64,000 nt of DNA from Takakia lepidozioides (Eukaryota; Plantae; Bryophyta). Position numbers and translations under genes: made by a program. This document shows positions 13,208 to 48,943 of the stretch, piece after piece (positions within the stretch are counted from its first letter, which is position 1; each line of letters starts with the position of its first letter). Where the stretch lies: positions 10,788,001 through 10,852,000 of the forward strand of contig CM060733.1 of NCBI GenBank assembly GCA_030704615.1, read 5' to 3'. The notes beneath the pieces are model-generated. The model did no database searches and was not told the origin of the DNA. It worked only from the letters and a program-made list of their open reading frames with translations.

Positions 13208-16200
13208 GCGCTCCAGACTCCTAATCCTCCACACATTCGGAGCTCAAAAAACGACCTCGTCTAAGTTAGACATCATTTTTCTACAGTGAGTACCAAAACA
13301 GATTTGCACCGAGCGTAGACGTGGACCTCAAGCTTCTTATGGATATGTACAACGCACAGATATGAGTTGACACTTGACACCCTAATGGTTACTGCAACCT
13401 GCACATGGTAAACTCCCCACTCTACAACACCATCTCAGAAGTCGATTTGAACACGCCTTTGAGGAGTTTGGGCAACATGAACCAGCTTAAGACTTCCAAT
13501 TTGACGCGGGCAAGGTTGCAGAAATCGATCCCGACAGAAACAAGATATTTCGCTGTGCTTCATTCTCCGAACTTGCCCCAGTCTTGTCATGAACTGCAAC
13601 CGAACACGAGAACTCTCCCAAAATACTGATGAGCTAGTTTCAACTTTCGTGCTCCGCTGAGCTGCGCTCGAGCAAAAACTGTCGGGACCATCCTATCTCG
13701 TAACAGGTCCTAAGGGCGCGAAACACCACACTCTCGAAAGATGCCAATCGGCAAATTAAACAAGCCGCAAACTTGTCCATTGAAGCAACAATTTTGACAA
13801 GCTACCACGTGGTTTATACTTCAGAGCTTTTTTTGGACCAATCGTACCGACTCTTGACACGGTGTAAGGTCAGTTGACCACAGTTTCTCCATTGACTTCA
13901 ACACAATGCAAAGTCTCTGCCCTGAAGGGATAGAGCTAAAAACACGCCGAACTATGGAAAGCACGCCGTGTCTAGATGGGCGGCCGGAGAGGGACGCAAA
14001 GATGCCGCTCCTGTTGCAAAACAATGAATCACGAGAGGCAGGGATCCTCCGAATGGATCAAAGGTGGGAGCGTTGTTCCGGAATTTGCCACGACTTGCCG
14101 CCACTACAGTGTAGTGGCGAGCAAGCATCCCACACCAGTAAGTACTGGAGTCCATGGCGCCCACAGCCTCCAAATTCCAGATTCCAGCCGGGCTAGCTAG
14201 CTGCAACTTCGCAGCTACTGCACTGAAACTTCTCAAATGGACTGACCTGACCAACTGACCAAACAGCACAACTGTGCCAAACATAATTGCAGAGCCATAT
14301 CCATGATAAATTATTCGAGGTTTCAGCCTATGGCAGTGGGCGCAGCATTGACAAATATACCGCCGAACAAAGCATGCCGGTCCGGACTCCGCAGTGCGCA
14401 CCCAGTGCAGGCGCGGGCCCAACCGAGGTGGAGCCTCGTGGCGTCGGTCCCGACTCATAGAAAAGGAATAATTGATTCGTTTACCGATTTCTCTATAGAC
14501 ACTGGGCCTACCACGTCGATCGGGTCACCACAACTTTTCCTAGTTTGACGAGATCCAGCTCGATCGGTCTGCGCGTGCTTCTTCACCTTCTTCGTTGTGC
14601 ACAGTGTGCAGTGTGTGCAGTCTTTCGAGGTCAAATACCGACAGCGTCGGCCACTGAGATCTCAGCTCAAATCACTGTGTTCCACTGAGTACTGTATAAG
14701 AAGGCAGAGTAATCTAGTCATTTTCTAGATTTCAGAAACCCAATAGGCTAGTGGTAGATGATGTCAGTTTTGGGTACAGTGACGCTTTTGGGTGCGCATC
14801 CTCTCCTGGTGGCTTTCATTAGTCTTTCGAAGTTCTCTGAACACCTAATATGTTGCCTACAGTGGCTACTGTGCTTCTTTGGGCAGGCAAAGTACGCCCA
14901 CAGATGTTTTGGGGTAGAAGCAAAATCTCAGCAGACGGGTGACACCAAAACCATTTCGGGGACACCAACTGGACCTGGAGGCAGTTTTGTGACAAAATTG
15001 TGCATGGTTCCATGAGTCCCCTTCAAATCTGTGATTTCCAAAATGCTGGATCGTCCATGACTACCGTTGAATGGAGATCTGTTAACCCTTTCTAACAGCC
15101 ACTACAAATAAGTTAAAAGGGGAATGGAACTTCGACACATTGCTGGACTACAATCAGGCTGGCGAAACGTTAAAATGGTAGAGCAATTGACAAGAAAGTT
15201 GGTTACCCAGATCTACAGAAGGGCCTTCGACATGGCTTCCAATTGGTGTTATTCTTCAACCACAGGATACAGCCGTGTTTAACCTGACCGTTCCAGTTGA
15301 CCAGATGGTGAAAACCACATGGTTGAAGGAGTCTGGAGTTAATCGAGAAGAAAGGAAACTAGGATTTACTTCCTGGGTGCCCGTGAGAGAGCCACCATTC
15401 TCAGATGGCCCATGCTTAGATAGGCTACAAAACTCTCTCTCGACTGACCCCGGTGCAGTCTCATTTGCAGCAATATGCTTCCTGAGCGAGTGCATCAGCT
15501 GTCGATCATGAAAGTTCTCTAAGAAAAACTCTGAAAATTTACATGAAGACAACCTGGACAATAAGATTAACCTGTGCTCAGCGAGTGTTTGGAAAACATT
15601 GTCTTACATCATCATTCAGGAGTATTCATAAGTAACTAATCCTCGAGTTATGATATTGAGCATTGACGTATTGACATTTCTTTCAGCTGAATAATTCCAA
15701 AGACTTCAAACTCAGACAGTAAGTTAGATGTCAACCAGTACTCATGCACAAGAAGCATGATTCGTTTCACTACAATCCATGAGCATAGCCCAAAATCGTT
15801 ACATTCAATTGATCCTAGTGTACACAAGCATGCAGGCAATTGATAATAGTATCAGTAAGCGCAACAGGCCTCTCATTTTAAGATAATAGGGTCTTCAATG
15901 GGCACGTGCGATGTGGCCGGTGGGCCCCGCGCACGGACGCCCGGCTCCCCAGCACCCCGCCCGCCCCCCGCCCGCCGCTGCGCGCGGTCGCCCAGCCGCG
16001 GGCGCGGCTGCAGCAACCGCACCCGCGCCCCCCGTCCGCCACGCGGCCAGTCCCCTGCCCACGAGTCCGCTGCCATCCAGTCTGCCAGTCCGCTGCCCAA
16101 CAGTCTGCCAGTCCGCCAGTCCGCCCGCCAGTCCCCTGACGGCGCAGGATCGTCACCGTCCATTCCCATAACCCATCCGAGCCCTCCATTTTTAGGGCTA

Positions 16201-16439: not shown

Positions 16440-19400
16440 CCTTCAACAGGAAGGATCTCCATTGGAAGAGTGAGACGTAATATGGTTTATGGGTGTGCGA
16501 GTGAATGTTGAAAAGGCCTGCATACCTTGGGATAGAGTTGGTGACTTCGTCCTGGGAGAGGAGAGTTTGGAGGACTACCCACTCAGTTTCGGGTGAATGT
16601 CCATTCTAAAGTAGAACCCGGCTCGCGAAAAGCACCCAGAGCCAACACATTTGTGTCCAGTATTATGTGTGCACCATCCTCAATCCTTTTGACGTTTCAT
16701 TGCATGTTTGTTGTCATTTTTTGTTTCACGAGTTCTCTGATTTTATGCTTCCTCAAGTCGTTGGATATCGATTTTAGAATTTTCTGTCCAGGTATCAATG
16801 CTGTTACGGTCCTAATGACAAGCGCACCAACAAGGCAATAGTGGAGGATCCAAAACAGAAACGTGGAGGACTTCTTGTGGGTACTGGAACATCTTGCCCT
16901 CATAAAGGCCCAAGGAGAAAGAAGTCGGAGTATGGAGAGTCTTACAAACGTGGTTGTCAATGTTGTTTCAAGGTCCAGCAATGCTATCTCGCCCCTGACA
17001 TCTGTGTCCTCACGTACTACAACAACATGGAGCATACAGATGCGCAAGGGAAACCCTCGCATGGGAAGTCCGCAGAGTTCAGGAACACCCGCCACGCCTA
17101 TGCACCACACATTAGCGAGGAATTGAAAGCCTGGGTCATCGAGTGTTTGTGCCGAGGCCTGTCGGTCGCCCAAATCATGATGGAGCATAAAGAGCACGTG
17201 ATGAACAACACCGGCTTGGGCGATGCATGGACCCGCGATGATTTCTTGTTGGAGCAAAATGTTCGCAACCTTGCCGAGAAACATGCGTGGCAAACCTTCA
17301 AAAAGCACGCCGATGATGCAGAGAGTGTGCGCATGTGGAGAGACCAGAATCTTGCGTCCGTTTTTTTCTATCAAGAGGAGAAATTAGAGCCAACATTCGA
17401 GCATTTTGATGGAGATTTGACATTCACTATTGGCATACAGACTCCGTGGCAGAAACGACGAATGCTGGAACTAGGACATGACCGTATCGTTGCATGTGAT
17501 GCAACCTTTGGGACAAATCATGACAAAGTACTATTCGAACGATTCCATGGACTTGTACGAGCATGATAGCATAGTACCATGCAACATTCACATAATATTT
17601 GGTGTGCTGACCCTTTCTGTATGTTTAGGGTTTGTACGTTGCGGAAGACCGAGAGGCAGACCCATTGTGAACCGCTACAGACCTCATCACTCTTATGAAG
17701 TCTTCTCGTGCAGAACTGAGCGGAATTTGCATGCTCTGACCATCTTACATTGTCCATTCCAACAATTCCCATTATACACGTTGATGGTCTTCGACGAGTG
17801 GTTGAACGGTATACCAGTTGTCTATATCCTATCCGTGAGGAATCGGACAAGAGACCTGGTTCCGTGGATGAGAGCCTTGCGTGATTCACTCCTCGCAGAT
17901 TTGCCGAGCTGGCGACCCAATGCCTTCATTGTGGACGATGCCGAAGCAGAAATCAACGCTATTCGGTAAGTCTGTTGGTCCACAGCACCGGTCCATTGTC
18001 GAGGTCCACTGCAGCAGTCCATTGCTACAGTCCACTGGCAGACTCATGTGGCGAAACCCGATGGCAGTTCGTTGGGCAAATCCACTGGTAGTCCGCTGTC
18101 AAGTCCGGTCATCAGTCCCTTGGCAAGTCCGCTGGCAGTCCCCGGCAAATCCGCTCGGCCGTCCGCTGCCAAGTCCGCTGCCAAGTCCACTCAGCAGTCC
18201 CTGGGGTCGGCCGTCCGCTGCCAAGTCCACTCGGCAGTCCCTGGCAAATCCGCTCGGCAGTCCGCTGTGGCAGTCCACTGCCCCAGTCCTAGCTAGGGGA
18301 AGTCCAATGGGGAAGTCCACTGGGTAGTCCAATGGGGTTATTCCAACACATCAACGTCATGGCATTGTACTGTCCACTAGGCGAGTCCAGTGGCTCTGCC
18401 CGCTGATACAGGTCGTTGTTATAGTCCACTCCGGCAGTCCACCATTGCAGTCCGATCCCAAGACTCTAATGTGTACCATGTGTGTTGTGCAGAATTGTTT
18501 TTGAATAAGTACTCATTTTCCTCTGCCTTTGGCATGTCCGCAAGGCATGGGTGAAGCAATCATGCAAGAAAACAAAGGATCCGGTGACCGCTGTAAACTT
18601 GTTGAAGGATATGGGAGACCTCATGGACTGTAGAGGGGGACCACACAACGAGAAAAGAGCGCTTCGGTGGGTTGCAAGGAGAATCCGTCGTATGAGGTCA
18701 AAATACCCGAAGGACATGAATTTCTTGACTATATCAAACAGTACTGGAAGCCCAAAATAGCAATGTGGTGTACAGCAGCCCGCCATGTCCCTCATGCGAG
18801 CCAAGACACAAACGAGGCATACCATGGAAATCTGAAGGCAAGACTTGCCATGGGGAAAGGCAAGATGAGTGGTCGTAGAGTGGACTGGCTTATATGGGAA
18901 CTCACTGGCCGTGTGCTAACACACTACTGTACGCAATCCATTTGAAGACCCACGGGTTCATAAGAAATGACAAACATGAAAAAGTACATATCCAGTTCTA
19001 TACTTGCGGCACGAGACATTCCTGCTGAGAGTGTTACTCTTCCCTTGGGTCCTGGTGAACCAGCCTACGTTCTCAGCAGCAACCACCCCGGCACAACATA
19101 CATTGTTTATAATCTTGATTGCGATTGGGGTTGTTGCACGTGCCCATGGGCAATGAAGGGAAACTTATGCAAGCATCAGGTCCATGTCCTGAAGATGCTT
19201 CACCCTGACCTGCAGGATGGCCTTCTTGTATGCGCTTGTGGCAGGGCGCTGGGAACCATTCATGGAGGATTACCTAACTTGCTCTTGGGCAATGGTACCG
19301 GCGGCAACGACGAATCCAATCAGTTCATGGAAAGACATCCTCCGGACGACTTCCCCTACGACGAGGCACCTCTGGAGGTCTCAGCCTCATTGGAACAAGA

Positions 19401-19737
19401 ATTCGCGGACATACTTCGCATTGTAGGTGATGACAAATACCTGGAGGCACATGCCCGATCTGCTCTTCATATGTGCAGAGGGCAGCTCGTTGATATCCTG
19501 GCGAAAAGTGCGGCTGGAATGTTGCACCCTACGGCAGCGAAGGTTTTCCGTCCTCTGAACGACAACAACAACATGTCTCTGAAAATGAGACGAGATTTCG
19601 TGGAGACCTGGAAAACCCGGCCTAGGGTTTTGCGGAGAACCAGCGAGAGGGTGTCTGCACCTGCACCTGCAGCACATATATACTCAAAAATTCGCAAGGT
19701 TTCAGGTCGTGTAGATGTCACGAAGAAGACAATATAA
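16440..19737 (+). pseudogene. Mutator-like (MULE) DDE transposase with SWIM zinc finger; spliced, frameshifted
   Basis: IPWDRVGDFVLGEE, KRGCQCCF, IVACDATFGTN (first Asp), FIVDDAEAE (second Asp), LCLWHV (CxxH), DTNEAYH (Glu), SWIM CTCPWAMKGNLCKH. Introns near 17528-17765 and 17966-18491. In-frame stops and frameshifts near 18500-18960. Confidence 0.85.
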
Positions 19738-27368: not shown

Positions 27369-27868
27369 NNNNNNNNNNNNNNNNNNNNNNNNNNNNNNNN
27401 NNNNNNNNNNNNNNNNNNNNNNNNNNNNNNNNNNNNNNNNNNNNNNNNNNNNNNNNNNNNNNNNNNNNNNNNNNNNNNNNNNNNNNNNNNNNNNNNNNNN
27501 NNNNNNNNNNNNNNNNNNNNNNNNNNNNNNNNNNNNNNNNNNNNNNNNNNNNNNNNNNNNNNNNNNNNNNNNNNNNNNNNNNNNNNNNNNNNNNNNNNNN
27601 NNNNNNNNNNNNNNNNNNNNNNNNNNNNNNNNNNNNNNNNNNNNNNNNNNNNNNNNNNNNNNNNNNNNNNNNNNNNNNNNNNNNNNNNNNNNNNNNNNNN
27701 NNNNNNNNNNNNNNNNNNNNNNNNNNNNNNNNNNNNNNNNNNNNNNNNNNNNNNNNNNNNNNNNNNNNNNNNNNNNNNNNNNNNNNNNNNNNNNNNNNNN
27801 NNNNNNNNNNNNNNNNNNNNNNNNNNNNNNNNNNNNNNNNNNNNNNNNNNNNNNNNNNNNNNNNNNNN
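27369..27868. other. Assembly gap (500 N)
   Basis: Run of N. The round size suggests a placeholder of unknown true length. Confidence 0.99.
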
Positions 27869-28280
27869 GCTAGAGATACAGCTTGATGAAGCTGCAAGTG
27901 GCGCAAAACCCGCACCATCTCCCAAAACAGACCCGACCTCGAGTCTCGCAATCCATTGCCATGCCCGGCTGATTAATGCCCTTGGCAGGGCCAACCTGCC
28001 ACTACCAGATCAATGGAGCCAACCCGCTCCAAATCCTGCGCCCCCAGCAACGAAATGTCTGCTGGCAAGGCCTGCTTGATATCCACGAATTGCAGACACC
28101 GACAACAACTCAGGCTGCCCCAACTGAGCAACATGGCGAAGTGAACGCGTCGTGCAGTCTCATCCCTCCCACAACAGGTAACGCCGAACTCGTCCCCTGC
28201 CTGTAACACAGCAGCCAATCCGGTGCTGATCCCGCCAAACAAGTCCAGAAGCAAATGCCTTCATCCGAACTCCACACAAT
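27869..28280 (-). pseudogene. C5 cytosine DNA methyltransferase domain (N-terminal half) inside the retrotransposon polyprotein; truncated by the gap
   Basis: Motif I LLDLFGGISTGL (~28251-28216), motif III-like ADISLL, motif IV IDLVVAGWPCQGH* with the catalytic PC, then SAGHGNGLRDSRSGLFWEMVRVL. Frameshifts and one TAA (27973-27975). Confidence 0.85.
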
Positions 28281-31165
28281 AGGTTGTGTCCAATGGAGAC
28301 ATTGAGGGTGGTCCCCGGTGCAATCCCCACACTCTCCTCCTCTCCTGACGGTACAAAAGCCCTCACCCAGGCTTGTTGGCACCCGTCGATCAGCATCCCA
28401 CTGCAAATCCTTGCTCGTGCCCCACAATGGAGTCTGAGCAACCATGGTAGGGCAACTCCGCCATACCATACATGTCATCTTGCTCTCCTCCCCGGAGGTG
28501 GTACATCCGTCTGAATGAGCATTGCCCTCAAGCAACTCTCTAGGCCAACTCACTGCCGCTGTGAATGCTGCTAGTGTCGGCATCTTGCCTTGTTGGCAAA
28601 CCGCACTCCTCCTATGAACGTCCAGGGAGCTGCACACGCCGGCCCTCCCCTGACTGCCATGCAGGCCTATAGGAAGCTGACTCCTCCCAAAAATCCAGGG
28701 TGAAGCCCATGGGGTACAACACTGCCCCACCAACCAGGACATCGTATGAGACTGCGTCTGTCACAATGGCCTTGGCTCGCATCACTGAGCCATCTGTAGG
28801 TGATCCCGGCCGTAGTCTGATAGCCAACTCATGCCGTGTCATGCCCCGAGCCTGCTCCGATCCTCCAGAGACGTCTGTATCTGGAAAGGACAAGGCTCCA
28901 TATCCGCCTCCGTGAGGCCCAAGCCTGCAATAGCAGCTCTGCCCAGCATCAGTGGCTGAGGCTCCCGAGTCCAACAAGACTCGCAGTGGCCGGTACCTCT
29001 TTGCCTGCCGGTCCACTCAACAGAAATGCCATCCTGGTTGTCTAACATGACAACTCCAGGTGTCACCATGGCACGCTCAATGGCTGGCCTAGCTGGCAGC
29101 TCCATCAACCTGGCAGCTGCAGCTTGCCATGGCGCCGCCGTGGCAGTCTTGACCCTCAAATCCGAGGATCCTCCGGCACTACACCTCCCACTATCTCCGC
29201 AGAAGATGAAGTAACCTCCCCACTCTCACAGAGTGTAGCTGCCAGCCTGAACACCTCAGCTGGTCTTATCCCGGCGTCGCAATCATGGTAGCCGAGAACA
29301 ATGGAGCCTGGCACACAGATGTGCCGCTCCTAACAGCACACTAGCTGCCGTAGCCTTGGCAACACTAGGTAGTGGTGCTGCCGTGTAGCTCTCCCCAATG
29401 GCATAGTAACCTCCGCCTCGGTAATAGTCGGGCGAGAACTAGGTGCCATGGATGGCGTCGACACTGTCTCCGCCAATGTGAATGACTGAGGAAGCCTAGC
29501 CTGACGGCTTGCCTCCCACGTGTGGATCCAACTCCACCTCTGCACCTCGTGGCTCAGGAACTCGTGCTGCTCCTCGAGTCACGGCTACAGCAGACTCCAC
29601 CTGCACTAGTGGTAGTGCTGCTCCACACATGAATCTCATGCCTCCCATATCTCCTCCCTCAGGAGCAGGAGGTGGACCATCCGGCCTTAGAGCCGGTACC
29701 ACCTGAGCTGTAGCCATGGCAGCGAGCCTCTGCTCTAGCTGCTGAAGCCGGTTTGGCCATGCCTTGGTCAACACCCTGACCTCCGCGTCCGTGGCCACGT
29801 TGAGCTTGCCCTTGGCCTGCACCTTGTGGCTGGCCACCTCGTCCTCTCTGGCTGCTCCACCTCGCCCCCGGCCACCATTGTTCCCTTGGAACTGGCCTGG
29901 GCGCAACTCAGGATGCAAACTATAACACTGGGCCTCTCCATGCCCGTGCTTGCCACAATGCCCACACTGCAACTGTGCAGGCTGTGCATGTGCCGACCCT
30001 TTGCCTCCCTCTGGGCAATCCTTCTTGACATGGGGTCCTCCACATGTCCAGCACACCACATCCGCCCGTTGTTGGCCAGCAAATGAAGGGAGAGACCCCA
30101 TCTGAGGTCCTCTCTGCCCTTCCCTGAGCTTCACCTGAGCCCCCTTGTTGCCTTGAGCACGTTGAGGTAGTGGTTGGCTAGGAGCACCACTACCCCATGG
30201 TGTCTCCTTAGCAAATCCCACCATGACCACTCGTTCCTCCACCATGTTGAGCTCTATCCGCTCTGCCAGCAAAAACACATTTGCTAAGGTGGGTTGGGCC
30301 GCTTGTAGGAGAGTTGCATCTCGCACCCTTCTCCTCAGCTCCTTGTCCAATATCCCATACCAGAATTGGACTGCCTGAGCTTCCGTAACCCCTTGGGTTA
30401 CATTTATCAAGCGCCTCATGCGAGTGAAAGCCTCCCTCAAGCTCTCGGTCGCTTCCGTTGGAACTCTTGCAAGCTCCGCAACTTCTCTGTCCTCACCCCT
30501 TGGTAGTTCCCTCTCAACTCTTCGAAGAACTCCACAACAGGGTTGAAGGCAGGCTCGGGTACTAGTGCTGGTGCGGTAGTGGCTTGGGTGGATGTCGTAG
30601 CTACTGTACCACCAGTCCCACTGCTACTTGCTGAAGCTGCCGGTGCAGCGGCAGGTGTAGCCACTGCCCTCGTGGTTCTAGTGCCCCTAGTGATGGAGAC
30701 ATAGTCGGGTGACCAGTACATCCTCCACTCCTCGATCTCACCTCATGCCCCGCCTGAACTCATGGTAATCATCCATAGGTGGCCCCTCAAGGTGCTGAAA
30801 CAGCCCTTTCCATGCCATGACGGCGTAAATAGTTGTGGATTGCGCATTTGCTGCAAATCACACCAACTATCAAACTCTTGGATAAAATCATCCAACTCAA
30901 TGGTGCCCACCGCCCCAGAGTACTTCGTGGCCCTTGATAGCTCCATACATCTCCTCCATTGTGTCCCACAACAATGGCAAAGAAACACTTGCACCGCCGT
31001 ATGAGCCCTCCTGATTCACAATCCGAATCAGAACCTTCCGTGGAAGACACAGGAGGTGAAGGTGGCCTAAACGCACACCTCGTCTCGTGTACCCACTAGT
31101 ATCGCTAGTGCTCGAACCGGCACTGTCCCCAGCAACTAGTGGCACCTCCGTGTTGACACTCAACC
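28281..31165 (-). pseudogene. LTR-retrotransposon gag (capsid plus two CCHC knuckles) and aspartic protease; many frameshifts
   Basis: KYSG..ELDDFIQEFDSWC, FFEELRGNYQG..LQEFQRK..ESLREAFTRMRRL (gag); CWTCGGPHVKKDC and CGHCGKHGHGEAQC; RVLLDSGA (~28961-28984) followed by YDVLVG (retropepsin). Confidence 0.88.
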
Positions 31166-31439: not shown

Positions 31440-34400
31440 ACAGCTCACTGGTCACAGCCGTCACAGTCCCACAGGCCACTGGGCACAGCCTGTCACAGCC
31501 CCTCACAGCCCGTCACAACCTCAAAGGCCTCAGGCACAGCCTGTCACAGCCCCTCACAGCCCGTCACAGCCCCAAAGACCTCAGGCACGGCCTGTCACAG
31601 CCCCTCACAGCCCGTCACAGCCCCAAAGGCCTCAGGCACGGCCTGTCACAGCCACTCACAGCCCGTCACAGCCCCAAAGGCCTCAGGCACGGCCTGTCAC
31701 AGCCCCTCTCAGCCCGTCACAGCCCAAAGGCCATGGGCACGGCCTGTCACAGCCCCTCACAGCCCGTCAGAGCCTCAAAGGCCTCAGGCACGGCCTGTCA
31801 CAGCCCCTCACAGCCCGTCACAGCCTCAAAGGCCTCAGGCACGGCCTGTCACAGCCCCTCACAGCCCGTCACAGCCTCAAAGGCCTCAGGCACGGCCTGT
31901 CACAGCCCCTCACAGCCCGTCACAGCCCCAAAGGCCTCAGGCCGGCCTGTCACAGCCCCTCACAGCCCATCACAGCCCCAAAGGCCATGGGCACAGCCTG
32001 TCACAGCCCGTCACAGCCCCACAGGCCTCAGGGCACAGCCTGTCACAGCCCCGCACAGCCCGTCACAGCCCCAAAGGCCACTGGGCACAGCCTGTCACAG
32101 CCTGACACAGCCCATCACAGCCCCACAGGGCACAGGGCACAGCCTGTCACAGCCCATCACAGCCGATCACAGCCTCAAAGGCCTCAGGCACGGCCTATCA
32201 CAGCCCCTCACAGCCCATCACAGCCCCAAAGGCCATGGGCACAGCCTGTCACAGCCCGTCACAGCCCCACAGGCCTCAGGCACGGCCTGTCACAGCCCCT
32301 CACAGCCTGTCACAGCCCCAAAGGCCTCAGGCACGACCTGTCACAGCCCCTCACAGCCCATCACAGCCCCAAAGGCCATGGGCACAGCCTGTCACAGCCC
32401 GTCACAGCCCCAAAGGCCACTGGGCACAGCCTGTCACAGCCTGACACAGCCCGTCACAGCCCCACAGGGCACAGGGCACAGCTTGTCACAGCCCATCACA
32501 GCCGATCACAGCCTCAAAGGCCTCAGGCACGGCCTGTCACAACCCCTCACAGCCCATCACAGCCCCAAAGGCCATGGGCACGGCCTGTCACGGCCTGTCA
32601 CAGCCTCAAAGGCCTCAGGCACGGCCTATCACAGCCCCGCACAGCCCGTCACAGCCTCAAAGGCCTCAGGCACGGCCTGTCACAGCCCCTCACAGCCCCA
32701 AAGGCCATGGGCACGGCCTCTCACAGCCCCTCACAGCCCGTCACAGCCTCAAAGGCCTCAGGATCGGCCCGTCACAGCCCGTCACAGCCTCAAAGGCCTC
32801 AGGATCGGCCCGTCACAGCCCGTCACAGCCCCAAAGGCCTCAGGCACGGCCTGTCACAGCCCCTCACAGCCCGTCACAGCCCAAAGGCCATGGGCACGGC
32901 CTGTCACAGCCCTTCAGAGCCCGTCACAGCCTCAAAGGCCTCAGGCACGGCCTGTCACAGCCCCTCTCAGCCCGTCACAGCCCCAAAGGCCATGGGCACG
33001 GCCTGTCACAGCCCCTCACAGCCCGTCAGAGCCTCAAAGGCCTCAGGCACGGCCTGTCACAGCCCCTCACAGCCCGTCAGAGCCTCAAAGGCCTCAGGCA
33101 CGGCCTGTCACAGCCCCTCACAGCCCGTCACAGCCCCAAAGGCCATGGGCACGGCCTGTCACAGCCCCTCACAGCCCCTCACAGCCTCAAAGGCCTCAGG
33201 CACGGCCTTTCACAGCCCCTCACAGCCCGTCACAGCCCCAAAGGCCTCAGGCACGGCCTGTCACAGCCCCTCACAGCCCATCACAGCCCCAAAGGCCATG
33301 GGCACAGCCTGTCACAGCCCATCACAGCCCACAGGCCTCAGGGCACAACCTGTCACAGCCCCGCACAGCCCGTCACAGCCCCAAAGGCCACTGGGCACAG
33401 CCTGTCACAGCCTGACACAGCCTGACACAGCCCGTCACAGCCCCACAGGGCACACGGCACAGCCGGTCACAGCCCATCACAGCCCATCACAACCTCAAAG
33501 GCCTCAGGCACGGCCTGTCACAGCCCCTCACAGCCCATCACAGCCCCAAAGGCCATGGGCACAGCCTGTCACAGCCCGTCACAGCCCCACAGGCCTCAGG
33601 CACGGCCTGTCACAGCCCCTCACAGCCCGTCACAGCCCCAAATGCCATGGGCACGGCCTGTCACAGCCCCTCACAGCCCATCACAGCCCCAAAGGCCTCA
33701 GGCACGGCCTGTCACAGCCCCTCACAGCCCGTCACAGCCTCAAAGGCCTCAGGCACGGCCTGTCACAGCCCCTCACAGCCTGTCACAGCCCCAAAGGCCT
33801 CAAGCACGGCCTGTCACAGCCCCTCACAGCCCATCATAGCCCCAAAGGCCATGGGCACAGCCTGTCACAGCCGTCACAGCCCCACAGGCCTCAGGGCACA
33901 GCCTGTCACAGCCCCGCACAGCCCGTCACAGCCCCAAAGGCCACTGGGCACAGCCTGTCAAAGCCTGACACAGCCCGTCACAGCCCCACAGGGCACAGGG
34001 CACAGCCCATCACAGCCCATCACAGCCTCAAAGGCCTCAGGCACGGCCTGTCACAGCCCCTCACAGCCCATCACAGCCCCAAAGGCCTCAGGCACGGCCT
34101 GTCACAGCCCCTCACGGCCTGTCACAGCCCCTCACAGCCCGTCACAGCCTCAAAGGCCTCAGGCACGGCCTTTCACAGCCCCTCACAGCCCGTCACAGCC
34201 CCAAAGGCCTCAGGCACGGCCTGTCACAGCCCCTCACAGCCCATCACAGCCCCAAAGGCCATGGGCACAGCCTGTCACAGCCCGTCACAGCCCCACAGGC
34301 CTCAGGCACGGCCTGTCACAGCCCCTCACAGCCCGTCACAGCCCCAAAGGCCATGGGCACGGCCTGTCAAAGCCCCTCACAGCCCATCACAGCCCCAAAG

Positions 34401-35500
34401 GCCTCAGGCACGGCCTGTCACAGCCCCTCACAGCCCCTCACAGCCTCAAAGGCCATGGGCACAGCCTGTCACAGCCCATCACAGCCCCACAGGCCTCAGG
34501 CACGGCCTGTCACAGCCCCTCACAGCCCATCACAGCCCCAAAGGCCATGGGCACAGCCTGTCACAGCCCGTCACAGCCCCACAGGCCTCAGGGCACAGCC
34601 TGTCACAGCCCCAAAGGCCACTGGGCACAGCCTGCCACAGCCTGACACAGCCCGTCACAGCCCCACAGGGCACAGGGCACAGCCCATCACAGCCCATCAC
34701 AGCCTCAAAGGCCTCAGGCACGGCCTGTCACAGCCCCAAAGGCCATGGGCACAGCCTGTCACAGCCCGTCACAGCTTGACAGGCCTCAGGCATGGCCTGT
34801 CACAGCCCCTCACAGCCCCTCACAGCCCCAAAGGCCATGGGCACGGCCTGTCACAGCCCCTCACAGCCCGTCACAGCCTCAAAGGCTTTAGGATCGGCCC
34901 GTCACAGGCCCTCACAGCCCGTCACAGCCCCAAAGGCCTCACGCACGGCCTGTCACAGCCCCTCACAGCCCCAAAGGCCATGGGCACGGCCTGTCACAGC
35001 CCCTCACAGCCCGTCATAGCCTCAAAGGCCTCAGGCACGGCCTGTCACAGCCCCTCTCAGCCCGTCACAGCCCCAAAGGCCATGGGCACGGCCTGTCACA
35101 GCCCCTCACAGCCCGTCACAGCCTCAAAGGCCTCAGGCACGGCCCCTCACAGCCCGTCACAGCCCCAAAGGCCTCAGGCATGGCCTGTCACAGCCCCTCA
35201 CAGCCCATCACAGCCCCAAAGGCCATGGGCACAGCCTGTCACAGCCCGTCACAGCCCCACAGGCCTCAGGGCACAGCATGTCACAGCCCCGCACAGCCCG
35301 TCACAGCCCCAAAGGCCACTGGGCACAGCCTGTCACAGCCTGACACAGCCCATCACAGCCCCACAAGGCACAGGGCACAGCCTGTCACAGCCCATCACAG
35401 CCCATCACAGCCTCAAAGGCCTCAGGCACGGCCTGTCATAGCCCCTCACAGCCCATCACAGCCCCAAAGGCCATGGGCACAGCCTGTCACAGCCCCACAC
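31440..35500. repeat. ~4-kb satellite: 10-bp core (GTCACAGCCC) arranged in ~51-bp higher-order units
   Basis: Unit gcacggcctgtcacagcccctcacagcccgtcacagccccaaaggcctcag recurs with a 51-bp period (e.g. 31585 to 31636), with ggccatgg and ggccactgg variants. Confidence 0.97.
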
Positions 35501-35994
35501 ATGGCCGCTCTGGCAGTTTAGCCATTTCTCCAAGGGGTTTAGCCACGCCAAGCTAGGGTTTGTGTCTCTTGGACTCTAGGCTTCTTTCCACCGAGCTATG
35601 GTGGCTGTGAGGAAATCAGCAAGGTATCCTTGCTCTTTCGGCTCCCACACACCACCATAGTAGCCCTAAGCCATGAGGTGGTTGCCACAAACCAAGCCTT
35701 CTTTCTCACTTAGCCTCCCCAAACACGCCACTAAACTCAATGGCAAACAACCAAGCCCTGCTGGTTCCCAGCCCTTGTGAGCACTCATTCAAGCACTCCC
35801 CTCATTGGCCATAGCATCTGTCTTAGAGCCTATTCCAGCCCTCTACACCTGTTGCTTCAAGAGTTGCGCTCCCTTCAAGCTTGAAGTTGAAACCCCAACT
35901 CACATAGGCCCTACAAGTGCTTTTCTTTCACTCCAAGTGGAAACCAGCCCTAGACCTTCCGTTCTAGCTCTCTAAGGCTTGAAAACAAGAGCCT

Positions 35995-36350
35995 CAATGG
36001 GCTGAAGGCATGCTCCACACATGCCCCACTCTCACCATAAGAGAATCAGCTCCTTTGCTTCATTTCTTGCACCCACAAACCTGAAAATACAAGCTTCAGC
36101 AGGCTGAAAGCATGCTCTACATGCCCTACAGGGAAACCAGCCCCTTCCTTCCTTTCTTGCACTCCCACACCTAAAAGTGCAAGCCTTCACCAGGCTGATA
36201 GCATGCTCCACACATACATTGCCCTCACATAAGGGAAGTCAGCCCTTCCCTCTTCCTTGCTTGCCCTCCAAGCTTGAAGATGGAAGCTTCAATGAGCTGA
36301 ATACATGCTCCACACATGCAACCTCTTCACACAAGAGATATCAGCCCCTA
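35995..36350. repeat. Degenerate ~100-bp tandem repeat (4 copies) in the retroelement leader/LTR region
   Basis: gctgaNNNcatgctc[c/t]aca...cagc[c/t]cc near 36001, 36103, 36194 and 36295. Confidence 0.65.
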
Positions 36351-36899
36351 TCTTGGCTCCTTGGCTCCTTGATGCTCTCTATGACAAGACTAAGCACTCC
36401 ATAGCCTTTGCCAAGCTCCTGAAACCCTAAGGCTTACATTTCCAGCCACAAGACACTTCTCTTGTGGTGCAAGAACTCTTCTTCCAAGCTCTGAAACCCT
36501 AGGTGCACATTCCATGGCCTTGCCGCACCTCTTAGCTCCTGTTCCAGCCCTGCTCTTGCCATGACAAGAGCCCTCTCAATGCTGAAGCTCGAGATTGAAA
36601 CCCAATCTCACCATACTCCACAAAGTGCACTGATTTGCCCCAAGCAAAATCAGCCCTTTCGCTTGGTCTTGCAATCCTTCACACAATGAAAGCTCGCACT
36701 CCCAAGTCCAGTTCTCAGCTTTGCCACCAAAGCCACTATAACCTGCTCTTGACTGGTCCTCTTCCCAATCGTGCTTGCTCATGCATGTACACAATCTGGA
36801 ACCATCAAGGTGCTCTGGAATTACCTGCAGCATGGTGCTTTCATCTCTGAAGCTGAAGATCGAATGCCAAGGTTTACCACCTCGTAACCCACATCGCCT

Positions 36900-37360
36900 C
36901 CGCTTCGAACAACTAAGAGCTCCACGGTGCTCCTTGCATAACAACTTGGTTTCTCTAATTCTCAAGCAAAAACCACAAGTGCTACAACTAACTCGTATCT
37001 GGCACTCACAGATACGAGCTGATCTTTCTCGAGTGATAAAGAAGAAGAATACAAGCACAAGCTCATGCGAGCTCACAAAGCTGAAGCATAAACTCATGCA
37101 TATATAACCTCATCACTCAAATACAAGTCAAGCCAAGTGCACCCCACGCCATGGGGAATCCACACTACGGCGCCATAGCTAGGCGCGGTGAGGCTCAACT
37201 CGAGAAAGATGAGCCTCCCGCGCTTGCCGTGAAGATAACCACTCCAGGGCCTAAATCTGCCTTGACCCCTGGATTGACACTTGGGCCAATCCCAAATGTC
37301 AATATGTAAAAGATAGCTATTTCCTAGCTAGTTTCACACTAGTGGTAAAATAACTTGACA
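36900..37360 (-). repeat. Putative 5' LTR (outer end defined, inner end not)
   Basis: Begins TGTCA on the minus strand exactly where transposase coding sequence starts on the plus strand. Contains TTATATA (~37100) and a perfect 10-bp hairpin stem at 36992-37018. The partner LTR is not in view. Confidence 0.5.
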
Positions 37361-39014
37361 TGTCCACAGCCGGGGAGGGCAGCGGAGTCAGTCTTGTGAA
37401 GCGCATGCAGAAGGGTGGCGATCTTCAGAACTGTTTCCTTATGTTTGATCACGTCAAACGAGTGAAAGACTGGACTACAATGGCGTGTCATGTTTACGAT
37501 CCTTTCTACCAGCGAGTCATGACAATCGCAGTGTGTGACATGCAATCAGAGGATGCGGATTCACAGCAGCTAATGTGGAGAAGTCTCATTCGCGTTATGG
37601 ACTCCCAAGGTGTCCCATGTCCAAATTTCGCCGGATTTATGGTAGACAGTGCTCAAGCGAACTTCAATGCTATTCGCATTGTGTTTGGATCAGGAGATCC
37701 AAAGGTGCCAATGCCAGGAAGAGAGCGAACATGTCTTTTCCGTTGGACCCAGTCCCTTGAGAAACATACAAAGGCAGACATCAAACCGGAAATGCAGCCT
37801 ATTCATCTTAGGCTATGCAAACAGTACAAAGATGCGAAAAGCATGGCAGAGGCGAATACATTGTTCCAGACAATTCGTGCCTGGTGGTTCTCATCTGGGG
37901 CTGCATCAGAAGACAGCATGAGAGCGCTAGAAGACTGGCTGGCATTTTGGCACTTCCGGTACAGACAATGGGGAGCATGCATGACAACGGTGCGTGCATT
38001 TGAAAACTTGAAAATTTCATTGACTTTGTATCCATTTCCAATCATGTATGTTGTGGTGGGGTGTGCTTGTCCTCTTTCTGATATATGTTTTTCCATTTTG
38101 CAGCACTTCTCAATTGAGGAGATGGCGGACATGCCCTCTTGCAATCTGGCGGAGACGGTGCACAATGTATGGTTGCAGCAATCTCGAAAGCGGGGCCGGG
38201 ATTTGTATGTGGCGACGAAGTCTGGCACATAGAACGCACCACTGCTGGGTCTCGAGTGAAGTGCACAGCAATCAGAGCAACCAATCGTGAGAAATGCAAG
38301 TCCTCCATATCCAGAGGCAAGGTCCACACTCCGGCTCCGACCTTCACTGGTTTGTTCACGCCTTACGGGCAAGTCGAGGCGAAGAACCACAAATTTTGGT
38401 TCTGCCCTGACGACTGTGGTAGGTGCGTGCGTGGGACTGTGCGACCATCGGTTGTCATGAAGCCTCCTCCACCAAGCGTTTGGCCTGTGAAGGTGGGGAC
38501 ACATCTCACAACTCACGAGATTGCCATGCTGGAGGAGGCCCCCTCTGTACATGCAGGTGCTTCTACTTCAGCAAGTTTTGGAGTGCCACCACCGAACGCT
38601 GATGCATGGCCAACAAAACGAAATGGGAAGGTGGTTCGTCGTTTCCCTCCCACTGCCGAGCATTTTGGCAAGGTGGAATCCGCTCGAATGCTTCAAGGTC
38701 GTGTTACAGGCACTATGGAAGTTCCACATCCCGGGTATGGACGAATCTACACTATGATGACCTCCACATCCGCTATGCACGACCGGTTGTACGACATCGC
38801 AGTTTCAAATTTCCCCAACTGCACCTGTCCAGATTTTGTTGGCATGCTTACAACAAGTTTGGGAAAGACAGGCAAATTTATACCCTGCAAGCATCTGTAT
38901 TTTATCTTCTTGAACAAAATGGTATGTGATCCCAGACGCGACATCTTCATTCACCAGGCGACCATGAGTTTCAACGAGGTGCATACACTTATGCAGCGGG
39001 ATAGGAGCACATAG
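37361..39014 (+). pseudogene. 3' part of a second MULE-like transposase with SWIM zinc finger
   Basis: MFDHVKRV..TTMACHVYD, FMVDSAQAN, ERTCLFRW (CxxH with H changed to R), AETVHNVW, SWIM CTCPDF...CKHLY. Intron ~37991-38103 and a frameshift near 38220. Confidence 0.7.
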
Positions 39015-39500: not shown

Positions 39501-39899
39501 AGTCACGTCCCTCTGCCACATACACAACTAGATACTACTTTTTAAGTCACCACCTTTTTGCAAACTTCTAATCCTATGTAGGCTCACCCATTGTATGTTG
39601 TAAATAAAGTCTTCCAAGGTTTCATCATCATTTGCCACCCTTTCAGTGTATTTTCAATTCTTATATAGCACCACGGGTATTCTGACCACGATTCCACTGC
39701 CACAACTAGTTATGGTATCTCGAGCTCCTCATACCGAGCTTCTGTTCGACTATGCTGCATACTCGTTCTACTGCTTCAACACGTACAAGCAGATCAGACA
39801 TGGCAAGAACCCCGGCTCTCACGGTTTCATCCAAAAAAAATTACCAGAACGGTGCACGACAACTCTACACAAGGTTTTGATCATGTTTTGTTGGTTTTT

Positions 39900-40300
39900 T
39901 TTTTTTGTAGAAAGCAGTGTGACCAAGTTATTGCAAGTCACCAAGAGCTACAAGTTACACTGATTTATTCCATGATGGAATATTTAAGTCAGAGGCCAAC
40001 TAGGTTACACTAGGATTTAACAGAGACATGCCGACAGAGACATCCGTTGGCCAAGTTGTTGTAACTTTGTACTATTTAGGGATGGTGACAGCATCATTTT
40101 GAATTACCAGACTCCCGCCAGCGCCCAACGATTGTTACGATGAATAGTATTTAGGCTTACTACAGTGAGTCTTTTAGTGCTGAAACTTCTTTGTATGTTG
40201 ATGCTTTGTGGTGGAATTGCAATAGTGGTAAAGAGAACTCATAGTATTCTGTGTTTTGTTTGCCTGAATCTTGAATTGCTGTTCTAGATAGTATTGTATA
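39900..40300 (+). repeat. Copia 5' LTR (ends eroded)
   Basis: Matches 49016-49404 (gtgtgaccaagtta..ttgcctgaatcttgaat) with several substitutions and indels. No clear PBS. Confidence 0.85.
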
Positions 40301-40348
40301 TTGAATGAAACTAGAACTAGCAGAGAGATCTAGGAAATAGTAGCAAAG

Positions 40349-43206
40349 ATGAGTTCGGTTACCACATCGAAAGATGTGATGCAGATAGAGAGCTTTTCAG
40401 GAGAGAATTTTTCTCTATGGAAGTTTCAAATATTGATGATTCTCCTAGGAGCCAAGAAGCTATGGTCTCTTGTCAGTGGGAAGGATTTGAGAGCAGTGGC
40501 CTCGGATACAGATGAATGGGATGACAAGGACAATAATGTCTGCATGTACATTACTCAAGGAGTAGATAAGAATCACTTGCAACAGTTGGTAAACTGCACA
40601 AACTCAATAGAGATGTGGGCGAAATTAGTGGTAGTTCATGAGCAAAATGCTACTGAGAACATTAATGTCTTACAAAGCAAGATGTACCATCTCAAGATGG
40701 AAGAAAATGAGAGCATCTCCAGTTATATCAACAAGATAGAACTGATGGCAAAACAATTGAGTGATCTTGGTGAGAAGATGACTGAATCAGCTATCATGGC
40801 AAAGATAGTGTGCACTTTACCTCCAAGGTATGAGAACAAAGGACGTTGAACAACCTATAGTCTAGGTTACTCAAGAAAGAAGTGTTGAGAAAAGCGCGAG
40901 GAAACACGGAGGATATCATGGATAAAGCTTTCTTCACAAAGCATGTCAAAGGAAGGCATAACTCATCCACGAGCGGTGGAAGTATTCTGACAAAAGAGCA
41001 GAAGAAAGAGAGAGCTGAGAGGATAGCAGAGCTAAAAAAGAAAACGAGGTGCAACACCTGCGGTGAAGTTGGGCACTAGGAGCGAGAATGTAGAAGAATA
41101 TCGTAGTTGCTGCTAACATGGTGGAATCCTTTAAGATGACCGATGCCTATGCTGCCACTGCATTTCATCATGAAGAAAGAGAGCGTATCGATGATGACTC
41201 AGTGACAGAAGGAAGAAACACTGATCAGAACATTGTCGATGATCTGATAAAGATTGTACATATTAGTAATGCTAATGCAGAAGCATACAAGAGCACGTCA
41301 ACTAGAGAGAAAGTTGGCGATGAAGACGATACATCCTGGTACGCAGACAGCGCTGCATTTGAACACATGACCAACAAGATGCAATGGTTCAAAAATCTTA
41401 AGAAGATTGAATCTCATCGTTGGGGAGTACAAGTTGCCACTGATGTTACAGTATGGGCAAGTGGAATAGGGGATATAGATATCCTAACTCTAGCAGGAAG
41501 TGAGTGGAGAAAGGGAACAATGCACAACGTGTTGTTTGAACTTTGTATCTGACCTCAGAAAGAATCTGTTCTCAGTAGCGAAGGCTGTAGACAAAGATTA
41601 CATCGTCATCTATGATAAGCATACATGTAAGCTGTATGCAAATCAGGGAAGGGGACCTCTTATGATGACTGGAGTGAGAGAGGAAAACCTTTGGAAACTG
41701 CAAATCAAAGTGATTACGGGAGCATCTGTGCAAGCAAACATGGTATTGTCGACGGATAATATTCAAGCAAATGTGGTAGTGACAACTGGGGGAGCAAGTC
41801 TTCAAACGTGGCATGATCGACTTGGACACATCAGTGTCGACACGATTAAACAAATGGCGAAAACACAAATCGTTGATGGTATGAAAATACTGAACCCTAA
41901 TGTAGATCTGGAGTTCTGTGAAGGTTGTGCCATGGGCAAGAATCACAGAGTTGCGTTTCTAGTAAATGAAGAACGTGAGAGGGTTCAGACTCCTGGAGAG
42001 TTCTACCATGCTGATGTCTGTACAATGAATGTAGACTCGCATGTAGGTTCCGAACATTTTGTCATGTTTAAAGATGATCATAGTAGGATCATAGCAGCTA
42101 TAGGATCTTGTATTGCATGAAAACAAAAGGAGAAGTTCTTAAGTTCTTCAAGCAGATTTGTGTGGAATCAGAGAGAGAGACGGGACATGCAGTAAGAAAG
42201 CTTAGAAGCGACAGAGGAGGAGAATTCTTGAGCGCAACATTTAAGACTTTCCTTGAAGAAAATGGAATTCGACAGGAACTTACAGCGCCGTATTCCCCAG
42301 AGCAAATGGTGTCATTGAAAGGAACAATAGGATTCTACTTGAAAGAGTCAGATGTATGCTGCAAGCAAAAGGTCTCAGTCCTAATTTCTGGGCAGAAGCT
42401 GCCACCACAACCACGTACACCCTAAATCGAACGGGAACCAGGTTGTTGAACGGGAAAACACCTTTCGAGGCGTGGAATGGGAAGAAACCTGACATCAGCC
42501 ATCTACGAGCATAGCATATTCACATGTGCCCAAAGAGCTGAGAAAGAAATTGGATGCCAAGAGCAAAAAGTGCATATTTCTTGGTTACAGTGTGGAATCT
42601 AAGGTGTATCGGCTATGGGATATTGAGCAGCAGCACATAGTCATCAGCCGTGATGTGTTAGTAGATGAGAAGGGTAACCGTAATTCTTCACCCATCGAAG
42701 AAATGATGAGAATACCTAATACATGCACTGTGGTACTTGAGGGAATGGTAGACAAAATGGCTCGAGAAGTACAAAGTTCTGAGGAATACGATTGACCAGC
42801 ATGATGAGCATCCTGAGCTTCAGCTAGTAGTGGATCTACCTATTGCCATGGATGAAGGCAAAATTCATGTAGCAAACACACGGCCTGAGCGGGTTGCACC
42901 AAGCTTGCAATGTTAGGGAACAGAAGTACGTCGATCTCGACGGCCACCATAGGCATTCGGCGAGTGGGAGAGTAATTACCTTACGTTTGCTGGAATAACT
43001 GAATACATACCATACCAGAGGAGCCAAAACGGTATGAGGAGGTGATGATGTCCCCTGATCGAGTTAAGTGGGAGCTAGCAATGAAGGAAGAAATTGACTC
43101 GTTACACAAAAATAAAACGTGGATGCTCGTTGAGCTGCCAAAGGGAAGACACACTGTGAATGGGTATACAAGGTAAAGCCTCGAACAGATGGGAGTATTG
43201 AGAGGT
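40349..43206 (+). pseudogene. Copia gag, protease, integrase and RT start
   Basis: FSGENFSLWKF, CNTCGEVGH*EREC, WYADSAAFEHMT, WHDRLGH..CEGC, LRSDRGGEF, LDAKSKKCIFLGYS, WELAMKEEIDSLHKNKTW..WVYKVK. Multiple stops and frameshifts. Confidence 0.92.
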
Positions 43207-43660
43207 CACTAGTACAGATTAACGTCTTTATGACTATGGATATCACTGTATTTGCAGTGATAAATGCTTCTATGACTACCTTACTCTGCAGTGCCAAACA
43301 CGAAGTCAGTTCTACCATGACTACGGAGTGATAAGTACGAAGTCATGGTCGTCACTGAGGACGTGTCGTGGGATAGTGATGCAGGGTTTGGTGATGTAGT
43401 CATAACAAATATGACTACACGATTGAAAGTTATGACTGAGGTTACAACTACATCAGTACAACATTGCGCCTACATGGAGAGGCCTCTGTGCGACATGTGG
43501 GATCCTGGGGATTTGACATGTGTAATCATTGTCTGATGGTGCAATGGAGTAGTCATATCTTCATGACTACACGACTATGGGTATGACTATATCACTACAA
43601 CATACAACACTACTGATGTCACGTGGTCTTGTTGGAGCAGATGTGACTGTCACGTGTTGA
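43207..43660 (+). mobile_element. CACTA (En/Spm)-type terminus with subterminal repeats, inserted in the Copia RT
   Basis: RT reading breaks exactly at CACTAGTACAGA (43207). About 9 copies of ATGACTA(C)/TAGTCAT follow in both orientations. The matching right TIR was not found. Confidence 0.7.
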
Positions 43661-44169
43661 TCATGTAGATTTTATAATTTATTAAATATTATTTAATTTT
43701 AGATGACTAATTTAGATATTAAACTATATTAAATTAATATGAAATTTAATAAACCATGCGGTGGAGCTCTCATAAGCACAACAATTGGCAAAGAGGAAAG
43801 GCCATCTATACCAAGACACAACCCCTCTGCAGGGAAAGAGAGCATGCATTAATCTTCCAATGACCAAAGAATCGACCCCCAACCCTGCTGGCAATTGCAA
43901 AAAGTGGCAAAGAAAGATTCTACGACCAACCCTATTGCATAGACTGGCAGAAGCAACAATATGATACAATATGAAAGACACAACTACAATCAAACATGTC
44001 ATCCATAGAAACACCATAACACAACCTCAAAGGATATTGCACCTCCGAACGATATTGGATGTTAATACATCAGACACTGACATGATGTTTGAACCAGTCT
44101 GCCTATATATATTCCCAAAATATACTTCATTCTTCAAGCACGATGTTGCTAAGCACTACCGCAACAAGA

Positions 44170-45630
44170 AATTGACTATCTACCCATGCAGGTTTCTTGT
44201 AGCTATCCTTCCACATGCAATCATAGGTAATCTGGAGCTTGAAATCCGGCCCTCTTGGATGAATCTGGACCTACACTCTATCCCTGCTCCTTCAGCTATC
44301 CATGCTTCTACACAAAATCATGCATACATCCTTGCCTTGCTGCTAGCAGCTGACAATGACAGCCTAGATTTTTTCTAGGAAACACCCAACTCAACTTATC
44401 ACACTAGTTCCTATGCTCAATGGCATACGCTACTCTCTGTAATCCAACAAGCATTCACCTTTTTGCCTTGATTGTCCCACCATTGACTGGGGTCAGAAAG
44501 TATTCATTCCACAGCTTCTCCTCGTCTTTGTTACCTGTTTCTGGATACTTTCATATTGTCACATTGGCAGTTTCATGTCAAAGTCACTCCAAACTAAATT
44601 CACTCAATCAGTTAACTTGCAGAATTCAACATGAAAATTTAGGGCTGATTCTGATAAGAGGGAAAAGCAGGGTGAATTGTGTTGAAGAAGGTGCCTTGAT
44701 TACCAGTGCCTAAATTTATCAATTGTGCGGCTACTGCTGTGACTTCCAGTTGACCATCTACCCATGCAGGTTTCTTGTAGCTACCCTTCCACATGAAATC
44801 ATAGGTAATCTGGAGCTTGAAATCCAGCCCTCTTGGATGAATCTGGACCTACACCCTATCCCTGCTCCTTCAGCTATCCATACCTCTGCACAAATCATGA
44901 ATACATCCTTGCCTTGCTGCTAGCAGCTGACAATGACAGCCTAGAATTGTTCCAGCAAACACCCCAACCCTACTTATCACACTAGTTCCTATGCTTAAAG
45001 CATATGCTACTCTCTGTAATCCAACAGGCATTCACCTTTTTGCCTCGATTGTCCCACCATTGACTGGGGCAGAAAGTATTCATTCCACAGTTTCTCCTCG
45101 TCTTTGTTACCTGTTTGTGGATATTTTCCTGTTGTCACATTGGCAGTATCATGTCAAAGTCACTCCAAACTATCAAAGGTTCACTCAACCAGCTAACGTG
45201 ACGAATTCAACATCTAGGGCCGATTATGATAAGAGGGAAAAACAGGGTGAAATGTGTTGAAGAAGGTGCCTTGATTAGCAGTGCCTGAGTTTATCAATTG
45301 TGCCGCTGCTGCTGCTGCTGCTTCTAGTTGACCATCTACGCGTGCTGCTTCCACAGGGAATCATAGGTAATCTTGTGCTTGAAATCTGGCCCTCTTTGAT
45401 GTTGGACCCACACTCTATCCCTGCTCCTTCAGCTATCCATGCCTCTGCACAGATTATGCATACATCCTTGCCTTACTGCTAGCAGCTGACAATGACAGCC
45501 TATATTTGTTCCAGCAAACACCCAACTCCAGTTATCACCCTATGCTCAATGGCATCTGCTACTCTCTGTAATCCAACAGGCATTCACCTTTTTGCCTCTA
45601 TTGTCCCACCATTGACTGGGTCCAGAAAGA
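44170..45630. repeat. ~578-bp tandem repeat (~2.5 copies) containing a fragment homologous to the 5' coding region of the PPR-DYW gene
   Basis: ttgac[t/c]atctac starts at ~44172, ~44750 and ~45329; ccatgcaggtttcttgtagctatc is shared with ~62972-62995. Confidence 0.9.
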
Positions 45631-47610: not shown

Positions 47611-47959
47611 CACGCCAATCTTGTCCTGTGAGATACCATTGATAAATCTGTCATATATCATCAAGAACTTCCCATGTGGCCAGATCTCTCCCTGTTTCTC
47701 AGAAGAAACCAGGTCTCCCAAAGCAAAAATGTGCAACATCATGCAAATGGACTACTTTTGGTCTTGGAGCTTGTGGGGTTTCATTGCTCGAGGTGTAAGA
47801 GCCACCAGGTTAAGACTGAGTGAAATGAACTCAGTAAAAGAACAAGGAAGGCACTCATTATATCCAGGGATAGAGAAATAAAAAATTTGATGTTTAGACA
47901 TTGCTTGCCCTAGTAGTCTTCAAGCCAAGTTAATGCCTGTACCCATTTTTGAAAGAGCA

Positions 47960-48936: not shown

Positions 48937-48943
48937 ATGGGAG

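Follow-up and report, generated by a model that had tools for sequence, protein, structure and literature searches.

The 5' half of a moss Ty3/Gypsy-type retrotransposon with a predicted DNMT3-type cytosine methyltransferase

The described element closest to the one presented here is KnitGypsy-Dnmt3 of the streptophyte alga Klebsormidium nitens (de Mendoza et al. 2018, PMC5890265; all statements on this paper refer to the parts of it covered here). It is the only streptophyte element reported there, and the species table has no row for Marchantia or Sphagnum. Like the bryophyte family described below, KnitGypsy-Dnmt3 combines Gypsy-type domains with DIRS-like terminal repeats in the order A-coding-B-A-B, and both carry an unrearranged DNMT3-type domain under purifying selection. 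The two differ in that the DNA methyltransferase (DNMT) of KnitGypsy-Dnmt3 lies in one ORF with reverse transcriptase (RT) and RNase H, whereas in the bryophyte family it ends ORF1 and a stop precedes RT. Moreover, the bryophyte family has a C-terminal PHD finger, while the term “PHD” was not found in the text of the KnitGypsy supplements (the figure was not covered), and its hosts are mosses and liverworts instead of a streptophyte alga. In yeast the KnitGypsy DNMT gave no methylation, a result regarded by its authors as inconclusive. Retroelement-borne C5 methyltransferases are also known from Symbiodinium, namely SymbioDIRS-Dnmt3, which has split repeats and performed de novo CG methylation in yeast, and SymbioLINE-Dnmt (PMC5890265). 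However, DIRS elements employ a tyrosine recombinase and LINEs are devoid of terminal repeats, in contrast to the DDE integrase, TG...CA ends and 4-bp target duplications of the bryophyte family; Pfam found no tyrosine recombinase family in ORF1 or ORF2 of an intact relative (L053), rve being present.

EpiLTRs (Fernandez-Moreno et al., bioRxiv 10.64898/2026.05.21.726589, in the portion covered here) are likewise LTR-type elements in which a DNMT is joined with a chromatin reader, but they comprise DAM, a DNMT4-related enzyme and a chromodomain and occur in Euglena and Cymbomonas; none of these components was seen in the bryophyte family, and Pfam scans of relatives L053 and L061 contained neither DAM nor chromodomain. 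Land-plant host DNMT3 and DRM enzymes (Yaari et al. 2019, PMC6453930, as far as that source was covered) have the DNMT3-type catalytic domain in common with the family and are set apart by their description: the family DNMT, unlike them, is intronless, multicopy and fused to Gag-protease. According to the part consulted of a 2019 opinion paper (PMC6338049), land plants such as tracheophytes lack elements of this kind, and the covered passages of PMC12344493 and of the EpiLTR preprint speak of “streptophytes”, which could include land plants. No paper describing bryophyte DNMT retroelements was found in the literature searched, subscription journals and repeat databases lying outside that search. 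The additions made here to the known type are its land-plant range, a read-through layout and a chlorophyte sister group.

The locus lies in a stretch of 64,000 nucleotides, here called the window. Judged by homology, its copy is the damaged 5' half of an abundant moss Ty3/Gypsy-type retrotransposon with a DNMT3-type methyltransferase. Its features, read from the 5' end of the element, are as follows.

37035..37360, minus strand: probable 5' terminal repeat of A type, beginning with TGTC (suggestive; inner boundary approximate)
35502..37034, minus strand: probable 5' leader with degenerate repeats of about 102 bp (self-matches at 35939-36349; placed by its position between the terminus and gag)
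31452..35501, no strand: array of 82 tandem copies of a 51-bp unit, lying upstream of gag (TRF score 4124)
30231..30959, minus strand: gag, frameshifted (tblastn with P0006 residues 1-240, E=1e-44 and 4e-37)
29925..30053, minus strand: two zinc knuckles, CX2CX3HX4C and CX2CX4HX4C (sequence; tblastn E=2e-15)
28651..29081, minus strand: aspartic protease, LLDSG at 28977 (tblastn E=2e-28)
27869..28251, minus strand: predicted DNMT3-type C5 methyltransferase, N-terminal half with motifs I, II and IV (PF00145, E=1.3e-9)
27369..27868, no strand: scaffold gap of 500 N, the remainder of the element being absent from the window (sequence)

The initial annotation had read gag, two CCHC knuckles, a protease and C5-methyltransferase motifs on one strand, and all of them were indeed recovered on the minus strand in that order. 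The first knuckle, CWTCGGPHVKKDC at 30053-30015, has the canonical spacing minus one residue, and the second, CGHCGKHGHGEAQC, occupies 29966-29925. The methyltransferase had been placed within about 700 bp of the protease, and LDLFGG at 28248 is found 729 bp past LLDSG, with GWPCQG at 27996 and GLRDSRSGLF next to it. As Pfam matched no fitting family in the unmended stop-to-stop pieces of gag and protease, both were identified by homology; even intact relatives match Asp_protease_2 weakly. The assignment of the methyltransferase to PF00145 holds with the stop read as X (38.4 bits against a cut-off of 22), while the unmended pieces gave nothing or E=0.018. Tblastn of the Marchantia protein Mp4g09160 (P0006) against the window gave E=8e-93 and 7e-35, which rules out a chance match, and a frameshift-aware alignment covered residues 1-1011 of that protein at 57.5% identity over 968 residues, the window being collinear with it from the first residue to the gap.

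The element probably reaches past 27869..31165, the interval annotated initially, to position 37360. There the window 5' terminus reads TGTCAAG where relatives begin with TGTCATG, and a 33/45-base motif is common to 37035..37360 and repeat A of relative L065 at a comparable offset (E=2e-4). The long plus-strand ORFs in 31452..35501 are products of the 51-bp repeat. On the other side, the gap interrupts the DNMT before motif VI. Searches of the whole window, the far side of the gap included, recovered neither a DNMT C-terminus nor RT, RNase H, integrase or a PHD finger; to the left of the gap, neither the opposite end of the element nor its target duplication was found. From the stop to the 3' end, RT and integrase included, the element is thus known from relatives and not from the window copy.

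The terminus at 37360 adjoins transposase-like frames with a SWIM finger (PF04434) at 37354-39014 (plus strand), which start abruptly at the probable 5' end of the element; the retroelement may have inserted into a Mutator-like element there. More transposase-like frames, with no Pfam match, occur at 16697-19737. A Copia element occupies 39898-49387, with 386-bp LTRs (39898-40276 and 49015-49387) that are 90% alike, and it is interrupted by repeated units of about 580 bp at 44172-47611. A receptor-like protein kinase gene is present at 12134-13243 (minus strand).

It was supposed from the beginning that the dense 1-bp frameshifts may reflect sequencing error rather than decay, and this is supported by comparison with relatives, though some true C-to-T ageing has to be added. 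The window copy differs from Mp4g09160 by about 28 frameshifts and one stop, the frameshift count varying with the penalties of the alignment script, which was our own. In 55 decayed relatives the ratio is opposite, with 196 stops and 22 frame changes (the method undercounts the latter); most of the frameshifts in the window copy are for this reason probably assembly error. At the window's stop, nearly all of the contig depth has a sense codon. In run X1, 65 substitutions were counted next to roughly as many indel rows (12 listed and 52 more), and 36 of the 65 replace a family G or C with A or T in the window, the pattern expected of methylated-cytosine deamination, from which the copy appears slightly aged.

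As the DNMT piece adjoins the gap and is riddled with 1-bp errors, it had to be considered whether a gene was captured just once or the contig end is misassembled. This explanation is refuted, its probability being practically nil: intact collinear relatives occur in three further genera of bryophytes, and the contigs spanning gag to DNMT number in the tens of thousands. The window stretch is covered by 27,261 and 30,625 contigs in two runs of one sample, possibly the window's own, and by 195 and 579 contigs in two other studies; gag and the DNMT segment with motif IV have equally high contig depth, which is not copy number. The window DNMT piece is matched by 45 of 785 candidate proteins, and those close to it that carry a name are from Marchantia, Sphagnum and Calypogeia. 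Of the 289 pattern stretches in metagenome contigs, 78 are relatives with a single conserved domain order, i.e. Gag, knuckles, protease, DNMT, stop, RT, RNase H, integrase and PHD finger (the last counted in 19 loci), and Pfam gives RVT_1, RT_RNaseH, Integrase_H2C2 and rve in this succession for relatives L053, L061 and L025. One group of the metagenome relatives is placed with a cluster that contains Sphagnum. In Marchantia polymorpha several Gag-PR-DNMT models of about 1280 residues are annotated with every catalytic motif present (Mp4g09160, MpVg00370, MpVg00540, Mp5g06330 and Mp5g06860). The family members MpVg00370, MpVg00540, MpVg00690 and MpVg00480 are located on the male V chromosome. 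Moss and liverwort DNMT domains are 70-77% alike. A scan of viral contigs returned one distant match in 17 stretches, and a search of protein feature clusters returned generic C5-methylase clusters only, one of them mostly Streptophyta. Judged from these sequences, the DNMT is a fixed component of the family, which carries it in Marchantia, Calypogeia, Sphagnum and also the alga Closterium. The RT expected to follow was found within 700 bp in 53 loci of relatives; in the window itself none was found, even past the gap.

The host of the window copy is a moss, which bears out the land-plant family claimed initially. A single-ORF F-box/SMI1/ApaG (SKIP16) gene at 57922-59328 (minus strand) has its best named matches in Sphagnum (64%), Physcomitrium (61%), Ceratodon (60%), a lycophyte (54%) and liverworts (50-52%). 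In a tree of 17 rows it groups with the mosses (SH-aLRT 99) as sister to Sphagnum, Physcomitrium and Ceratodon (support 83), a position that suggests an early-branching moss. Two long intronless PPR genes at 51249-54812 and 59924-63205 (minus strand), one ending in E, E+ and DYW, point to the same kind of host and suggest heavy organellar RNA editing in it. On these genes Chara, the host considered at first, was rejected.

The enzyme itself is, as far as its residues tell, of DNMT3 type, with the catalytic residues retained and under purifying selection. The window piece is 75% identical to P0006 over 68 columns and falls within the bryophyte clade with SH-aLRT 100, although its row fills 21% of the columns. 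In a PDB sequence search DNMT3A/B ranked first (E about 2e-11), well ahead of DRM and bacterial enzymes, and the structure modelled for an intact relative (34 rows; pLDDT 85, pTM 0.86) matches DNMT3A with E=1.5e-17 and TM 0.67; an earlier model (714 aa, 13 rows) with pLDDT 41.5 was set aside. Motifs VI (ENV) and VIII, which had been named for verification, are present in the domain set, as distinct from the window copy: among 83 domains the catalytic Cys is kept in 81, the ENV Glu in 82 and the two Arg of motif VIII in 81 and 83. In motif IV, EC stands in place of PC in 19 of the 83. Between subfamilies dN/dS was 0.10-0.25 where measurable, most deep pairs being saturated, and 0.12 in the unsaturated pair L053/L055; RT pairs with L008 are unreliable owing to a probable frame error. 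Within the young, decayed copies of peat-moss type it reached 0.45-0.99, which reflects decay.

The continuous PR-DNMT-RT frame that was to be tested for does not exist in the bryophyte clade, as DNMT and RT are separated there by an in-frame stop that is conserved. At this junction 50 of 53 loci share the position of the stop, which is TAG in 36 and TAA in 14; of the remaining three, two yielded another stop that is probably out of frame, and one yielded no stop. The 53 loci are not independent, several being one insertion in related samples. Junction lengths of 336, 378, 450 and 459 bp occur across subfamilies, all in frame and with the stop kept. The consensus read-through signal CARYYA (PMC5397192, in the part covered here) follows TAG exactly in 6 loci of divergent subfamilies, while the commonest context, TAG-CAACCC, misses its last base and has a Met three codons past the stop, so that re-initiation is possible in that subfamily. 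In L053, ORF1 of 1369 codons is separated by one stop from ORF2 of 1046 residues, whose first Met, at residue 117, already falls within RT. The ORF1 proteins of Marchantia and others terminate at the corresponding place. DNMT and RT in a single ORF are found in Closterium P0401 and in deep rows, e.g. P0064 and P0363.

It is rather probable that this stop is leaky, making Pol rare and the DNMT as abundant as Gag, and that the DNMT enters the particle and methylates the element's own cDNA. Ribosomes would sometimes read through the amber stop into the RT-integrase part; with the DNMT before the stop and RT made by occasional read-through, the DNMT would be produced at about the level of Gag and far above that of RT. 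Packed into the particle, it would methylate cDNA there or at integration, and new copies would thereby arrive marked like host DNA, while the PHD finger would probably steer integration to a chromatin state. The TAA in 14 of the 50 stops speaks against read-through of an amber codon. Two points speak against methylation of cDNA, namely the inactivity of the KnitGypsy DNMT in yeast and the CpG observed/expected ratio, which at 0.50 for the element equals the window mean of 0.51 and gives no sign of extra self-methylation.

An active DNMT could instead have host chromatin as its main target, at the integration site or at loci in trans. Its position before the stop, implying high abundance, and the PHD finger after integrase, suggesting chromatin contact, agree with such a target, yet the DNMT is fused to Gag-protease, and Gag-protease fusion is the usual way into a retroelement particle. 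In yeast, other retroelement DNMT3s acted in trans and methylated genomic DNA, although the methylome of K. nitens is ordinary and plant-like (both in the covered parts of PMC5890265). Taken together, a host-chromatin target is considered rather unlikely. Still less probable, and indeed doubtful, is that the domain has been retained for some purpose besides methylating DNA, e.g. binding of cDNA ends, structure or RNA methylation: the silence of the KnitGypsy enzyme in yeast and a CpG depletion no greater than background would fit it, but the catalytic Cys, the Glu and both Arg hardly vary among the 83 domains and the modelled fold resembles DNMT3, not DNMT2. Methylation of the element's own cDNA by a particle-borne enzyme remains the preferred reading.

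The ends of the element are unusual. Repeat A of the relatives is about 340 bp and begins with TGTCATG, repeat B is about 115 bp and ends with CAYGACA, and the layout is A, coding region, B, two bases, A and B. The full A...B-A-B arrangement was found in 5 loci, its 3' end alone in 2 more, A...B in 2 and a rearranged form in 1; none of the loci with a 5' A repeat had an A-B-A 5' end. Among eight two-ended loci, a 4-bp target duplication is exact in six, matches in 3 of 4 bases in one, and is missing in one with an eroded end. The initial designation as an LTR retrotransposon therefore stands for the relatives in Gypsy domain order, in the TG...CA ends (TGTCATG...CAYGACA) and in a duplication within the 4-6 bp of Ty3/Gypsy elements; two complete direct LTRs, one per end, were not seen, the ends being A...B-A-B or A...B split repeats. 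From sequence the element seems to behave like Gypsy, yet without a textbook LTR pair. A...B ends were considered as a separate replication product and rejected: L029 (A...B) and L067 (B-A-B) have one common 3' flank, so recombination or assembly collapse accounts for them. A G-rich tract, CTAG-GGGGG, stands directly before repeat B and not before A (3' regions of L053 and L061; L021, 6780-7057), and the B-nn-A junction CACGACA-nn-TGTCA is conserved across divergent subfamilies. The tract and the kept junction hint that the plus strand is primed at B and that integration uses the internal junction. We infer that split ends may let pipelines requiring a flanked LTR pair overlook the family.

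With regard to origin, the family is most likely, on the trees and domain orders at hand, the land-plant branch of the algal KnitGypsy-Dnmt3 family with a chlorophyte sister group, and would have descended from that streptophyte-algal type and been retained in bryophytes. At E<=1e-30 the DNMT domain is matched by 228 clusters (50% identity), and 95 of the best 150 carry other retroelement domains. Of ten representatives looked up, three were named, all of them Closterium with the order PR-DNMT-RT; the Closterium proteins are of PR-DNMT and DNMT-RT-RH composition. Among the named protein matches there was none from vascular plants, hornworts or Klebsormidium, which is not evidence of absence as most matches are unnamed. 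The DNMT tree (82 rows) and the RT-RH tree (41 rows), both from a quick search, unrooted and without outgroup, split PR-DNMT-RT from RT-RH-DNMT-IN-PHD elements with support of 96 and 99, respectively. The DNMT tree was built from domains of 250-380 residues, which leaves out the named Sphagnum rows, and without eight near-copies from Marchantia. In the large sister group (P0044 and P0066-P0113) the DNMT is placed between RNase H and integrase, and its named members are the chlorophytes Hariotina, Haematococcus and Monoraphidium; no paper on this group was found in the literature searched. An independent acquisition of the DNMT by bryophyte elements, with a host DNMT3 as its source or through horizontal transfer, would be in line with the stop between DNMT and RT as opposed to the single ORF of KnitGypsy, with the likeness of moss and liverwort domains, and with the lack of a named vascular-plant or hornwort match. 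It is nevertheless distinctly unlikely given the split-repeat layout common with KnitGypsy, the domain order found also in Closterium, the agreement of the DNMT and RT trees, and the predominance of retroelement proteins among the nearest 150 representatives. Inheritance from algal elements is thus preferred.

A broader picture may be drawn only tentatively, as its parts would all have to hold. A DNMT3-PHD Gypsy lineage would extend across the whole green tree, with RT-RH-DNMT-IN-PHD elements in chlorophytes and PR-DNMT-RT elements in Closterium and bryophytes, and would survive in land plants; its leaky amber stop would yield a particle-level, Gag-abundant enzyme pre-methylating each new copy, and the A...B-A-B ends would point to an unusual, possibly circular, integration intermediate.

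In practical terms, copies of the family can make the number of DNMTs in bryophyte annotations too high. Plants defend themselves against transposons mainly by DNA methylation, hence an element encoding its own de novo methyltransferase would exploit this host defence and turn it to its use. The benefit of such enzymes to the element has been a question since 2018, so far without a tractable host, and the intact ORF1 copies in Marchantia, a genetic model plant, open it to direct testing.
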